DNA of 64,000 bases from an uncultured Gammaproteobacteria bacterium (GTDB lineage: Bacteria; Pseudomonadota; Gammaproteobacteria; JBGSLN01), in contig CAVVHY010000033.1 of NCBI GenBank assembly GCA_963748135.1, positions 9,821 through 73,820 of the forward strand. Reading direction: 5' to 3'. Both the position numbers and the translations under genes were made by a program. Below are positions 3,187-7,556 of this stretch, piece after piece (the stretch's first letter is position 1; every line of letters begins with the position of its first letter). The notes beneath the pieces were generated by a model, which saw only the letters and a list, made by a program, of their open reading frames with translations, had not been told where the DNA came from and searched no databases.

Positions 3187-3249
3187 CTAGCAAATCATCT
3201 ATAAAAATAATAAAAAATTACTATTAATGATATAGACAGGCTTTTTTTA

Positions 3250-3456
3250 GAAACCCCCTCACCCTCCCCTCTCCCCCAAGGGGGAGAGGGATCAAGAAGG
3301 GGAACCCCATAGGTTACTAATTGTTGCAAGGCCGATAATATTTGTATGGCCGATAGTATTCGTAAAGCCCATAATAATTATAATCTGCTCACCCCGAAGG
3401 GGTGAGCCCCACATTCCCCTCTCCCCCTTGGGGGAGAGGGGAGGGTGAGGGGGTTC
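3250..3456. repeat. GC-rich nested palindromic element, copy A (two self-complementary arms around a 110-bp spacer with an inner hairpin gctcaccccgaaggggtgagc)
   Basis: Left arm: gaaaccccctcaccctcccctctcccccaagggggagaggg. Right arm: ccctctcccccttgggggagaggggagggtgagggggtt. The arms are reverse complements, and each arm folds on itself. The same unit recurs at 7188, 28346, 40541 and 46751. Confidence 0.85.
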
Positions 3457-3888
3457 TAATTAAACTAATTATCGTTGTCATAGTTCTTTATGCGCTGGCT
3501 GTTGACCATTTGCAAGTGGGATATATGTCCATAACCAAAATGATAATATCTGTTCACAAAGGTTTCTTGAAAATTTGCACTTATATTGTATAATTGCTAG
3601 TAAAAACCTACCAGTTCAATTTGCTAAAGGAACTAGCTAAATCATAAGGTCGCGCGAACAATTATCAAAGGCTAGTTTAGAAATGTTATCAAAAATCCTT
3701 AAGTTTACAGCAAGATCCAGTCGGCTAAATTATCTTATAAGATTATGTATTTTTGAGCGTGAATACATAAATGCGCTCTCGCAGTATACGTTAATTAATA
3801 TTAGTAGAAAGTTACACAGACTCCACTTTACAGCAGGATAGAATGTTTTATTTCATAATTTTAATTTACTAAACTTATTGGTAAGAAT

Positions 3889-5346
3889 ATGAAGATTGGC
3901 ATAATTGGCGCTGGATGGTATGGGGTTCATTTGGCAATTGCTTTGAGTAAGCAAGGACATGAAGTTGTTTTGATTGATAAAAATCATGATATGTTCTTTG
4001 GTATTTCTGGATCTTTTGGAATAAGGACTCATGTTGGGCCTCATTATCCGCGTTCTTCGAAAACACGAAAAAGTTGCCAGAAATGGTTTAAAGTTTTTTG
4101 TGAAAGATATAAAGACATTATTGTCGATCATAGTTACTCGATATATGCAATTGGTAAGATTGATGCCGATGGACTACCGCCAAAAGTAAGTGTAGGAACT
4201 TTTAAAAAAGTTTGTGCTGAGGCTCAGATAGTTGCTGAAACTGAAAATCCTGATGAGTTGGGTTACAGAAACTTATGGTATCTGGCTGATGTTAATGAGC
4301 CTAGTTTATCTTTAGGAGGTCGGCTTCGTAATAGATTTAGGTCTTATTTAGCAGAAGTAAACATTATGACACGATATAATACAACAGTGACTGATGTTGT
4401 AGTTAAAAATGGAAAAGCTTTGATCTTTTCCAATGATGTAAGTCTGGGGAAGTTTGACTACGTAATAAATGCGACAAGTTACCAAAGTGTATGCCCGTCG
4501 ATTCCTCAAGTTAAGCTTCCGTTTAATACGAAATATCAATGTTGTTTGGCATTCGTCTATAAAGATGAGTATCCTAAATCAACCAAACCATTCTCATTCA
4601 TTGTTCTGGAGGGCGCGTATCCATGTGTTATGCCTTGTGTCGATGGAGAAGGGGCTATAAATAAAAAATATATTTTAACTCATGGCCGGTGGACAATCCT
4701 CGGTTCATTTGATAAGCCAGATGATGCTTATGGTCTACTAAATTCTTTAACTGAAGAAGAATTAACTATTATTCGAAAAAAATGTGAGTTATCAATAAAT
4801 CTTTTTTGGCCAGCATTTGAAAATCGATTTAAATATGTTGGTAGGGAAGTAGCTGTATTAGCAAAATTAGTCACAGATGTCGAATTTAGAAGTGCTGTAA
4901 CCTATCTTACAAATAAAAGAATGATACATGTAGTCCCCGGTAAAATAACAAATGTATTCGATGTAGAAGAAGAGGTAAAAGGATTAATTAATAGTCATGA
5001 TGTAGATAATATAATCTCTAAAGAAGGTGTTACTTATCTTAAAGGTGGTGTTTTGTATTCCGCCATGGAAAAAATCACAACAAGGCCTAGAATACCATCG
5101 AGGAACACTTGTTCAATACAGACTTATAAAACTTTAAGAAATCTGACAGACAATGGCGATGCAAAATCCAAGGATGATTTCTCAATTAGTTATTTTCCAA
5201 AGCGTGACAGAGGATCTTATTGTGACAACAGAAATAGCTTATTCTCAGGATTCTATAGAAAACACAGGAATTCTGTTTCTGGAGACTTAACAAGCAATAA
5301 GTCTGTTGAAGGGCGTGTTATTTATAATTTAGGCAAAAGTATTTAA
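3889..5346 (+). CDS. hypothetical protein with N-terminal NAD(P)/FAD-binding Rossmann motif
   Basis: 485 aa beginning MKIGIIGAGWYGVHLA (GxGxxG dinucleotide-binding motif). No family recognised beyond this. Lies in an AT-rich insertion between dotD and dotC. Confidence 0.5.
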   Translation: MKIGIIGAGWYGVHLAIALSKQGHEVVLIDKNHDMFFGISGSFGIRTHVGPHYPRSSKTRKSCQKWFKVFCERYKDIIVDHSYSIYAIGKIDADGLPPKVSVGTFKKVCAEAQIVAETENPDELGYRNLWYLADVNEPSLSLGGRLRNRFRSYLAEVNIMTRYNTTVTDVVVKNGKALIFSNDVSLGKFDYVINATSYQSVCPSIPQVKLPFNTKYQCCLAFVYKDEYPKSTKPFSFIVLEGAYPCVMPCVDGEGAINKKYILTHGRWTILGSFDKPDDAYGLLNSLTEEELTIIRKKCELSINLFWPAFENRFKYVGREVAVLAKLVTDVEFRSAVTYLTNKRMIHVVPGKITNVFDVEEEVKGLINSHDVDNIISKEGVTYLKGGVLYSAMEKITTRPRIPSRNTCSIQTYKTLRNLTDNGDAKSKDDFSISYFPKRDRGSYCDNRNSLFSGFYRKHRNSVSGDLTSNKSVEGRVIYNLGKSI

Positions 5347-5354
5347 GATTTCCA

Positions 5355-6269
5355 ATGATGAAAGAAGAAAAGAGATACTGGTTAGAGCGTGATTTTGTTT
5401 TAGAGTTGTTAAAACAGGTGCCAGCTCATATATTTTGGAAAGATAAAAAAGGCGTTTATTTGGGCTGTAATGATACTTTTGCTAACGCGCTAGGTTTTTC
5501 ATCTCCAGGTGAAGTCGTAGGAAAAACAGATTTTGATTTGCCTACGACAAGGGAAGAAAGTGAAGCTTTTCGGAAAGATGATAAGGAAGTTATTACTTCT
5601 AAAAAGCCTAAATTAAATATTGAAGAGGAGCAAACTTTGCCAAATGGCAACAAGGTATCTTTGTTAACAAATAAAGTCCCTTTATTAGATAGAAATAAGA
5701 ATGTAGTTGGGATCTTAGGCATATATCATGATATAACCTGGCAAAAAGAATTGTTCAAAAGAGAAAAGCAAGCCATTGCAGATAAAGTAAAAGCTGAGCA
5801 AGCACAAGCAGATGCAGAGTTGCAAGCAGAACGCATGCAAGCTCTGGCCGCCACAATTGCACACGAATTACGAACACCTCTCGGTTCAATCGATAATATG
5901 GCCACATGGCTTGAATTAATCGCAAGTAAATTAAAAGATGGAGAACTTAAACAAAAGCTTACACACGCGTATGAACTCATATCTGGTGAGACGGCTAAAA
6001 CCAATGCATTTATTACCATCATTCTGGAAAGCTTATCTGAACTTAAAGATAAATCGTTTGAAAGATTATCAATGAAAGATTGTATTAATGAAGCCGTTGA
6101 TCGCTTTCCTTATGAAGCTGATGAAAAGAAATTTGTGCACACTGATAACGTAAATGATTTCGACTTTATGGGTAATCGTGAAATGGTAATACATGTGCTA
6201 TTTAATCTTATAAAGAATGCACTATACTTTGGAACAATATTGGCTGAAAAGTTGGGCACAAGATGCTGA
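5355..6269 (+). CDS. PAS-domain sensor protein with histidine-kinase dimerisation/phosphoacceptor motif (truncated HATPase?)
   Basis: PAS-like segment (FWKDKKGVYLGCNDTFANALGF...GKTDFDL). H-box ATIAHELRTPLGSI. N-box-like NLIKNALYF at the C-terminus. ORF ends before the G1/G2 ATP-binding boxes. Confidence 0.55.
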   Translation: MMKEEKRYWLERDFVLELLKQVPAHIFWKDKKGVYLGCNDTFANALGFSSPGEVVGKTDFDLPTTREESEAFRKDDKEVITSKKPKLNIEEEQTLPNGNKVSLLTNKVPLLDRNKNVVGILGIYHDITWQKELFKREKQAIADKVKAEQAQADAELQAERMQALAATIAHELRTPLGSIDNMATWLELIASKLKDGELKQKLTHAYELISGETAKTNAFITIILESLSELKDKSFERLSMKDCINEAVDRFPYEADEKKFVHTDNVNDFDFMGNREMVIHVLFNLIKNALYFGTILAEKLGTRC

Positions 6270-7086: not shown

Positions 7087-7187
7087 GTCCTATTCGAATC
7101 TGTTTGAGTTCTATCAATGCTATGTGTCTATATATTTTGAAATCAAAATCAAAAGTAGTGTTAATAATATGGGCAGGTTTGTTTTTA

Positions 7188-7292
7188 GAAACCCCCTCAC
7201 CCTCCCCTCTCCCCCAAGGGGGAGAGGGATTAGAAGGGAAACCCCACATTTCCCTCTCCCCCTTGGGGGAGAGGGGAGGGTGAGGGGGTTTC
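7188..7292. repeat. GC-rich nested palindromic element, copy B (compact form, 8-bp spacer)
   Basis: gaaaccccctcaccctcccctctcccccaagggggagagggattagaagggaaaccccacatttccctctcccccttgggggagaggggagggtgagggggtttc. Overall palindrome with self-folding arms. Confidence 0.85.
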
Positions 7293-7338
7293 TAAATCAA
7301 CTTTTGTCTCTAGTTTGTATTGTCTTACCTATAATCCC

Positions 7339-7488
7339 TAGTTTCCAGTTTCCAGTTTCCAGTTTCCAGTTTCCAGTTTCCAGTTTCCAGTTTCCAGTTT
7401 CCAGTTTCCAGTTTCCAGTTTCCAGTTTCCAGTTTCCAGTTTCCAGTTTCCAGTTTCTAGTTTCTAGTTTCTAGCTCCTAGTTCCTAC
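7339..7488. repeat. heptanucleotide tandem repeat array, about 21 units (CCAGTTT x ~18 then CTAGTTT x 3)
   Basis: Perfect 7-bp periodicity agtttcc/agtttct directly downstream of palindrome copy B. No spacers, so not a CRISPR. Confidence 0.9.
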
Positions 7489-7556
7489 TTCCCCTAACTG
7501 CTTATTGACTTTAGGGCTGCAAATTGCTTCAATGATTTGCAATTGCACTCAGGTTT

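Follow-up and report, generated by a model that had tools for sequence, protein, structure and literature searches.

A probable cassette insertion between dotD and dotC in a Legionellales-type metagenome contig

The Dot/Icm type IVB secretion systems (T4BSSs) of Legionella pneumophila, where the genes form part of region I, and of Coxiella burnetii have dotD, dotC and dotB in one order and orientation, with dotD and dotC abutting or overlapping. To our knowledge no cassette lies at the dotD-dotC site in either species. The subject of this report is a 64-kb stretch of a Legionellales-type metagenome contig (the window, 41.9% G+C), which carries intact orthologues of the three genes in the same order and orientation, but in which dotD and dotC are 4,370 bp apart (3187-7556). 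The spacer holds an intact flavoenzyme gene and the remnants of a PAS histidine kinase gene and a response regulator gene, between two copies, A and B, of a long palindrome. We consider it probable that a cassette was inserted precisely at the dotD-dotC junction, that it later decayed through a 479-bp deletion, and that dotC was re-promoted.

Two other groups of described elements are relevant to the contents of the spacer. REP/REPIN elements consist of two inverted REP units which form a long hairpin, and they are dispersed in intergenic DNA (PMC3116915, PMC3337134). Virulence regulators of the LqsR/PhcX family are widespread, and their output fold, the activity of which is unknown, is GGDEF-like (PMC10653808). 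Members of the LqsR family govern virulence traits in Legionella and Ralstonia (PMC10653808, PMC8023197). The pLELO-type plasmid genes related to them are plasmid-borne lqsR homologues outside the conserved regions (PMC8023197).

Status of the dotD-dotC spacer

The resemblance to region I extends downstream of dotB, where a membrane-protein gene (here a split BCCT-like gene) is followed by dotA and icmV on the opposite strand, with icmW beyond. Upstream of the spacer the gene order is M16-M16-rsmD-dotD. Five relatives were compared with this arrangement. Two loci of about 50% identity (L002 and L003) were obtained from a scan of species-representative genomes, and three (L012, L013 and L014) by looking up the most similar DotC proteins; the DotC proteins of the five are 49-61% identical to that of the window. 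In all five relatives dotD, dotC and dotB are contiguous, the dotD-dotC junction ranging from an overlap to a gap of 45 nt, and the upstream order M16-M16-rsmD-dotD is common to L002 and the window. Because the three genes abut or overlap in these relatives, the spacer is a derived, lineage-specific insertion. Both of the flanking genes, dotD and dotC, were left undamaged by it. The closest DotC homologues are only 55-63% identical, and on that distance the lineage appears isolated.

A preliminary description of the locus had reported a 4.4-kb, AT-rich spacer of three genes with palindromes A and B at its edges, and had proposed that it was inserted. All of these features were found in place (Table 1), none of the five relatives carries the same genes at the site, and the composition of the region agrees with the proposal. 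Sliding G+C content is 0.32-0.38 over 3500-7000, compared to 0.42-0.47 in the dot genes. The G+C content of third codon positions (GC3) was measured against 42 other open reading frames (ORFs) of the window, which have a mean of 0.394 and a standard deviation of 0.043. It is 0.243 for the flavin adenine dinucleotide (FAD)-dependent gene (z = -3.5), 0.285 for the kinase remnant, ORF3 (z = -2.5), and 0.352 for the regulator remnant, ORF4 (z = -1.0); the first two rank lowest in the window. Duplicated remnants of dotD or dotC within the spacer were also considered and rejected, as tblastn found nothing (best E = 1.8).

Table 1. Features of the dotD-dotC region and related repeats (window positions)
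Feature	Position	Strand	Remarks
dotD promoter-like two-box motif	2632-2660	+	TTGACA-N13-TTGCTTCAAT; -35-like box TTGACA; 17-nt spacer; TTCAAT
dotD	2698-3186	+	intact; PF16816 covers positions 2-121/121; Pfam DotD 98 bits
REPIN-like palindrome copy A	3244-3460		arms 3246-3291 and 3417-3455; 126-nt loop
sigma-70-like site, candidate cassette promoter	3567-3594	+	TTGAAA-16-TATAAT, 11/12; consensus match only
DAO-family FAD-dependent oxidoreductase gene, intact	3889-5346	+	485 aa; PF01266 29.9 bits vs cutoff 27.9
3'-truncated PAS histidine kinase gene (ORF3)	5355-6269	+	304 aa; Pfam PAS_4, HisKA
5'-truncated putative LqsR-family response regulator gene (ORF4)	6217-7086	+	289 aa; partial Response_reg
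putative deletion junction, 479 bp	6230-6232	+	...AATGCACTATACTTT|G|GAACAATATTGG...; joins kinase codon ~293 to regulator codon ~57, out of frame
REPIN-like palindrome copy B	7182-7297		two inverted 46-nt units, 100% complementary; 21-nt spacer
heptamer array AGTTTCC x18.9	7340-7471	+	Tandem Repeats Finder score 250, 99% matches
dotC copy of two-box motif	7505-7533	+	TTGACT-N13-TTGCTTCAAT; 24 nt upstream of dotC GTG
dotC	7557-8519	+	intact; PF16932 264 bits, positions 2-213/213; lipobox LSGC; GTG start
dotB	8516-9664	+	intact; TIGR02524 636 bits vs cutoff 463; start overlaps dotC end
single palindrome units	28346-28385; 40538-40594; 46761-46803		related G+C-rich hairpins, intergenic

The cassette genes and their homologues

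The kinase and regulator genes are both truncated, and the manner of their truncation was determined by comparison with intact homologues. ORF3 has the H-box AHELRTPL in its dimerisation and histidine-phosphotransfer domain, with H170 invariant in the kinase alignment, and its HisKA score of 25.3 bits is slightly below the cutoff of 26.9. Pfam gave no HATPase_c match in ORF3. From the ATP-binding part the N-box NLIKNALYF is retained, and the G1, F and G2 boxes are gone: ORF3 aligns through the N-box with four kinases of 438-520 aa (P0132, P0135, P0188 and P0133) and lacks their last ~87 residues, in which these three boxes lie. Its homology stops at 6230, after which there are 12 out-of-frame codons and a stop. 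ORF4 aligns with 343-aa regulators from their residue ~57 onwards (77-78% identity to P0128 and P0129, 71% to P0130). The first ~56 residues of the receiver, ie beta1-alpha2 and the acidic pocket (TVVCVDDD / VDDD), are missing from it. Still present are the phospho-acceptor Asp (FDQKMP), the T (MLTGQ), the K (YVSKH) and the entire C-terminal output domain. Structure prediction for the regulator from a 4-sequence alignment gave a predicted local distance difference test (pLDDT) value of 31.8.

When ORF3 and ORF4 were joined for a search, the closest relatives were two separate, adjacent genes, one for a 438-493-aa kinase that has both HisKA and HATPase_c (P0132, P0135 and P0188) and one for a 343-aa receiver protein (P0128, 80% identical; P0129, 79%; P0130, 67%). 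The two genes are adjacent in L004, L005 and L006, with a spacer of 25-32 nt. By blastn, window 5835-6230 corresponds to L005 4173-4568 and window 6232-7078 to L005 5048-5894, and there is a 479-bp gap against both L005 (4569-5047) and L004 (3255-3733). A contig from a separate assembly (L001, Logan, run ERR11523667) is 100% identical to the window across the junction. Since the same gap is seen against both homologous loci, the alignments show one 479-bp deletion at about 6231, which joined the kinase and regulator genes out of frame. Lost with it were the ATP-binding half of the kinase, the DNA between the two genes and ~56 codons at the start of the regulator. The 53-nt overlap of ORF3 and ORF4, and the ATG of ORF4, are codons of the kinase N-box read in another frame, and no ribosome-binding site is evident for that ATG. 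With the ATP-binding half and the first ~56 receiver residues deleted, the ORF3-ORF4 phosphorelay is predicted to be unable to work.

The preliminary description had noted that the PAS/HisKA protein has no recognisable ATPase domain, which is correct, and the 479-bp deletion is the cause. It had also asked whether 5355-7086 is one frameshifted hybrid kinase. That is ruled out by the two-gene architecture of the homologues and by the DNA alignment, which indicate separate kinase and 343-aa-type regulator genes joined by the deletion. Its suggestion that the region could be degraded remnants holds for the kinase and the regulator, two of the three genes, and not for the flavoenzyme, which is intact.

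The flavoenzyme gene encodes a DAO-family protein whose N-terminal dinucleotide-binding motif is GIIGAGWYG (GxGxxG). It has 149 homologues, the best of them 58% identical, with many in Legionella and Tatlockia and a few in Pseudomonas and fungi, and it keeps all 49 invariant columns of a 28-sequence alignment. An AlphaFold2 model (pLDDT 83.6, predicted template modelling score 0.82; residues 424-485 disordered) was compared with the PDB using Foldseek. The top matches were monomeric sarcosine oxidase, glycine oxidase, N-methyltryptophan oxidase, NikD and opine dehydrogenase, and at least 30 top matches were sarcosine, glycine, N-methyltryptophan or opine oxidases or dehydrogenases. The E values were about 1e-14 and the template modelling scores 0.52-0.57 when normalised to the query, which includes the 60-residue disordered tail; identity to the matched solved enzymes is 11-16%. 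Sequence and profile searches of the PDB matched the Rossmann motif and nothing more, and no equivalog in NCBIfam came near its cutoff. The product is predicted to be an intact enzyme with an amine-oxidase (sarcosine/glycine-oxidase) fold. Ser, Asn and Lys abound in its tail (424-485, about 60 residues). The named Legionella homologues measure 471-528 aa, those of Pseudomonas about 415 aa, and the tail seems to be specific to Legionellales. The best sigma-70-like match of the region lies about 295 nt upstream of the gene.

Residues 25-285 of ORF4 match residues 95-355 of PDB entry 6sy9_A (E = 2.5e-26), and residues 8-340 of P0128 match residues 26-356 of the same chain (E about 1e-26). The chain, labelled merely 'Response regulator' in the PDB, is one which we take to be L. 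pneumophila LqsR. A tblastn search with P0128 found 'response regulator' genes of pLELO-type Legionella plasmids, at 23% identity over 95% of the length. Because of these two sets of matches ORF4 is assigned, by homology, to the LqsR family of response regulators. The transmitter of the partner kinases scores best, among curated models, with the quorum-sensing kinase LuxN, although far below its cutoff. No LqsA-like aminotransferase domain was found by Pfam in the ORFs of the cassette or in the genes flanking the homologous kinase-regulator pairs, and the neighbours in place of lqsA and lqsS are the DAO-family flavoenzyme and the PAS kinase. The kinase-regulator pair would be Lqs-like, yet with a cytoplasmic PAS sensor and without LqsA.

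Two readings would give the cassette a present function. The preliminary description had suggested a regulatory module co-opted for control of the type IV secretion system. In a working module of this kind the PAS protein, the truncated regulator or the flavoenzyme would still respond to a signal and tune dotC/dotB or other dot/icm genes, and the heptamer array might add phase variation. Such a module would fit with the control of virulence traits by LqsR-family regulators in Legionella and Ralstonia (PMC10653808, PMC8023197), with a location directly upstream of dotC, with remnants that have no secondary stops or frameshifts, and with a regulator whose output domain, acceptor Asp, T and K are intact. 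However, a kinase without the G1, F and G2 boxes is not expected to bind ATP, a receiver without beta1-alpha1-beta2-alpha2 and the acidic pocket would be unable to form the (beta/alpha)5 fold, and the ATG of ORF4 arises from kinase N-box codons, with no ribosome-binding site evident for it. Intact copies in other genomes never adjoin dot genes, and heptamer arrays similar to the one before dotC are found elsewhere in the window, one of them between convergent genes where a promoter role is implausible. We give the co-opted module little chance, the G1, F and G2 boxes of the kinase and beta1-alpha2 of the receiver having been lost. The second reading sees in the flavoenzyme, PAS kinase and LqsR-type regulator an uncharacterised small-molecule circuit of Legionellales, an LqsA-independent counterpart of the Lqs system, wired into the T4BSS operon, whose survivors still modulate dotC and dotB. 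The flavoenzyme would then make or destroy the ligand, and the flavoenzyme and the receiver-less output domain would act with the re-created promoter and the length-variable heptamer array. We regard this circuit as quite improbable.

Genes of the cassette's families occur together at other loci. In L007 the FAD gene is followed by a PAS kinase and a 331-aa receiver protein of the same family, in L008 by a hybrid kinase, among housekeeping genes, and in L010 by a kinase and then a transposase. When metagenomes were scanned with the flavoenzyme alignment, 24 loci were found at an identity of at least 37%, 22 of them with enough flank, and in all 22 a kinase of the cassette's family lies immediately beside the FAD gene. 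Including L007, L008 and L010, the pairing was seen at 25/27 loci. The paired kinases (L016-L037, L007, L008 and L010) are often hybrids of ~700-830 aa. Dot genes were found near none of the 27 loci examined.

The closest kinase-regulator pair, with a regulator 80% identical, is on L005 (ENA ERZ25039500 contig_53857), a contig of 27 kb and 36% G+C which also has genes for a methyltransferase and a membrane kinase. L005 looks like a plasmid because it encodes ParA, toxin-antitoxin proteins (HigB, TacA/TacT-like), an integrase, a resolvase, a Tn3 transposase and a MobA/TraI relaxase. L004 (Logan ERR11523667, 5761 nt) carries an intact paralogous PAS kinase (493 aa, 58% identical) and an LqsR-family regulator (343 aa, 67%), the pair adjoining an aldehyde dehydrogenase gene. 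Since L004 and the window's cassette derive from one sequencing run, and L004 terminates in an exact 22-nt copy of the palindrome family's arm, the two probably share a genome. The AT-rich composition, the recurrence at unrelated loci and the plasmid-like contig with the closest kinase-regulator pair support horizontal acquisition, as the preliminary description had proposed, and the flavoenzyme-PAS kinase-LqsR-family regulator cassette is best read as acquired, mobile and possibly relocated within the genome afterwards.

The opposite view would be that the three genes stood between dotD and dotC ancestrally and were lost in other lineages, the AT-richness being a result of mutational decay. 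Between dotB and dotA lies a decayed BCCT-like gene which is likewise AT-rich (G+C 0.32-0.37), so decay does lower G+C content in this genome. However, the five relatives belong to different sublineages and have no cassette at the site, so many independent and precise losses would be needed. Moreover, the most AT-rich gene of the cassette is the intact one, the module is found at unrelated loci elsewhere, and the kinase-regulator pair is on a plasmid-like contig. An ancestral arrangement is, in our judgement, exceedingly improbable.

Palindromes, heptamer arrays and the motif before dotC

Copies A and B share identical arms of 46-48 nt and are each other's closest relatives. Their similarity continues past the palindrome, for ~20 nt on the left and ~12 nt on the right, so that a direct repeat of ~145 nt, in which a palindrome of ~113 nt is embedded, brackets the cassette. 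Folded as RNA, copy B reaches -113.8 kcal/mol on one strand (z = -11.7) and -114.4 kcal/mol on the other (z = -13.6). The loop of copy A is that of copy B plus an insert of ~103 nt with an 18-bp tandem repeat and a small hairpin. In detail, the insert (3300-3410) has 2.7 copies of the 18-bp repeat at 3328-3376 and the hairpin CTCACCCCGAAGGGGTGAG; CCCCA seems to flank it at each end, and it may be a small nested element.

The 24-nt core of the palindrome occurs five times in the window (0.00 expected) and was absent from all loci retrieved except L004. Neither the palindromes nor the heptamer arrays are confined to the locus: related hairpins lie at ~28.35, 40.55 and 46.78 kb, two of them with arrays. 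In total, arrays are present at 3/5 family sites. The array before dotC decays to CTAGTTT, CTAGCTC and CTAGTTC units by ~7500, that at 40602-40634 is short and degenerate (CTAGTnn), and that at 46804-46962 is TCTAGTC x22.7 and lies between convergent genes. Because 3/5 dispersed sites of the family carry such arrays, the one at dotC is part of a native hairpin-plus-array composite, and neither a part of the cassette nor a dotC-specific device for the T4BSS. Rfam gave sub-threshold matches of the palindromes to microRNA precursors and similar hairpins, none reaching the gathering score. An integron attC site was rejected, since the palindromes are perfect, their ends (TTTAGAAAC...GTTTCTAAA) do not fit GTTRRRY and no integrase is nearby. 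A CRISPR was rejected on sequence features.

Other repeats in the window were noted in two long ORFs. The 655-aa ORF at 46966-48933 has no Pfam match and contains an array of 12-bp repeats (48239-48369), and the 645-aa ORF at 54102-56039 has 30/60/90-bp repeats at 55452-55909.

The repeats may have mediated the insertion of the cassette. In favour of it, A and B are sister copies at the two edges, with direct-repeat homology reaching beyond the palindrome. The same repeats could have given rise to an assembly artefact, the cassette being located elsewhere in the genome and threaded between dotD and dotC by way of the shared 46-48-nt arms. The short-k Logan assembly of the same run does break exactly within the palindromes (L001 is window 3435-7211), and L004, from that run, ends in the same arm, both signs that several copies of the repeat exist and are collapsed in de Bruijn graphs. 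However, the identical stretches are merely 39-48 nt long. The largest k-mers customary in metagenome assembly would exceed this length. Further, the loops of A and B differ (126 and 21 nt), as do their flanks, which makes each junction a unique sequence, and even without the cassette a hairpin, the heptamer array and the promoter-like motif would still part dotC from dotD. We think an artefact very unlikely.

The promoter-like motif consists of two boxes, TTGACA-N13-(C/T)TGnTTnAAT, and is found 40-70 nt upstream of dotD in the window and in three relatives, L002 (~6505-6533), L012 (~7445-7473) and L013 (~5708-5736), whose DotC proteins are 51-61% identical to that of the window. It may be a conserved dotD promoter or regulator site. 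Both the exact 10-mer TTGCTTCAAT and the two-box motif occur twice in the window, upstream of dotD and dotC only; the chance expectation for the motif in the 150 nt before any one gene is ~2.6e-7 matches. A recent segmental duplication of the dotD promoter region was considered as the source of the second copy and rejected: the inter-box spacers are unrelated, only the two boxes being shared, the alignment covers the 10-mer only, and 23/500 shuffles score equally. A consensus scanner called no canonical intrinsic terminator or sigma-70 promoter in 7297-7556. It missed the dotC motif because TTCAAT lacks an A at position 2. The PmrA-like sequence TTAAT-N6-TTAAT has one match in the window, at chance level and far from the dotD-dotC locus. 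The motif suggests that the split operon was re-promoted, dotC-dotB being transcribed from a putative dotD-type promoter of their own.

With regard to the flanking genes, DotD is an NCBIfam NF033882 equivalog (146 bits, cutoff 140), and the lipoprotein signal MKTIKQIIIALTAIMLAGC suggests that the true start of dotD is at 2716. The gene after dotB is a single ORF of 445-463 aa in the relatives L012, L014 and L003. In the window (9686-11081) it is weakly BCCT-like, AT-rich (G+C 0.32-0.37) and broken into ORFs of 226 and 216 aa which are colinear with the L012 protein; it is a second case of gene decay within the dot region. The divergent icmV-icmW intergenic region (14338-14610) contains two copies of a 136-bp unit, 96% identical.

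Overall reading and comparison with known systems

The explanation we favour is as follows. A three-gene signalling cassette, consisting of a DAO-family flavoenzyme, a cytoplasmic PAS histidine kinase and an LqsR-family response regulator, would have been inserted precisely at the short dotD-dotC junction in this Legionellales lineage. Entry was most likely by recombination at a REPIN-like element, for example of a circle with one copy integrating at the element, which would explain the sister copies at both edges. The single 479-bp deletion would have come later and ended the phosphorelay, leaving the flavoenzyme gene as the sole intact gene of the cassette. The 4.4 kb, together with two very stable hairpins, would have cut dotC-dotB off from the dotD promoter, and from the sequence dotC-dotB now apparently rely on their own copy of the dotD-type motif. 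The heptamer array would be a by-product of the hairpin element family and no regulator of the secretion system.

Several points weigh against this explanation. By ORF list and Pfam there is no integrase or transposase within or beside 3187-7556, and no tRNA anywhere in the window, so the entry route stays putative; a tRNA-linked island was rejected on the latter ground. The repeats belong to a dispersed native family, and their positions at the edges may reflect a mere intergenic preference. With the nearest relatives as distant as they are (DotC at most 63% identical), the insertion is undatable, and a sister genome with the intact cassette at the dotD-dotC site was not found among them. The contig is metagenome-assembled, and its junctions pass through repeats. 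The -10-like box TTCAAT is without the canonical A at position 2, and the scanner did not call the motif. Lastly, the kinase and regulator remnants are both free of further stops and frameshifts, which would mean that the deletion is recent or that the fragments retain some function.

If the explanation holds, the dotD-dotC junction tolerates an acquired segment of 4.4 kb, with DotD, DotC and DotB remaining intact, and the second copy of the dotD-type motif, which appears to compensate for the split, makes the locus a small case study of operon repair after insertion. The case is a new example of a familiar process of acquisition, pseudogenisation and promoter compensation, and not a new control device; current understanding of how the T4BSS works is unchanged by it. 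The flavoenzyme-PAS kinase pair, at times with an LqsR-family regulator, is an uncharacterised signalling module of Legionella-like bacteria. This module may prove more useful than the insertion itself, and it is approachable in cultivable species, for example through the homologues of Legionella adelaidensis, L. hackeliae and L. clemsonensis. The hairpin-plus-heptamer composites could serve as variable-number tandem-repeat typing markers in this lineage, and are also assembly hazards.

Compared to horizontally acquired, pseudogenised genomic islets, the insertion is alike in its atypical composition, its absence from relatives, its flanking direct repeats and its internal gene decay. It differs in having no integrase, transposase or tRNA attachment site, and in having landed within a core secretion operon. 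The palindromes A and B resemble REP/REPIN elements in that they are dimers of inverted G+C-rich units which form a long hairpin, and in that their copies are dispersed and extragenic, the window having five such sites and L004 a further one at its end (PMC3116915, PMC3337134). The CTAGTnn arrays at three of the five window sites are no described feature of REPINs, and the 103-nt insert in the loop of copy A is a further difference.

The flavoenzyme shares its two-domain FAD fold, GxGxxG motif and Pfam DAO family with MSOX, ThiO, N-methyltryptophan oxidase and NikD. However, it is distant from them in sequence (11-16% identity), with no sequence-level relative in the PDB beyond the Rossmann motif; its gene is nearly always paired with a PAS kinase, and its disordered C-terminal tail is variable. 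As for the Lqs system (LqsS/LqsT-LqsR) and the LqsR/PhcX family, the 343-aa homologues of the window's regulator match 6sy9 over their full length, but the upstream position is taken by a DAO-family flavoenzyme and not by an lqsA-type autoinducer synthase. The sensor is a cytoplasmic PAS domain, unlike the multi-pass membrane domain of LqsS, LqsT and CqsS, the LuxN scores of the partner kinases are far under the cutoff, and the copy in the window is apparently disabled by the deletion. Finally, the window departs from the Dot/Icm dotDCB genes of L. pneumophila and C. burnetii in that a promoter-like motif of the dotD type precedes dotC itself.

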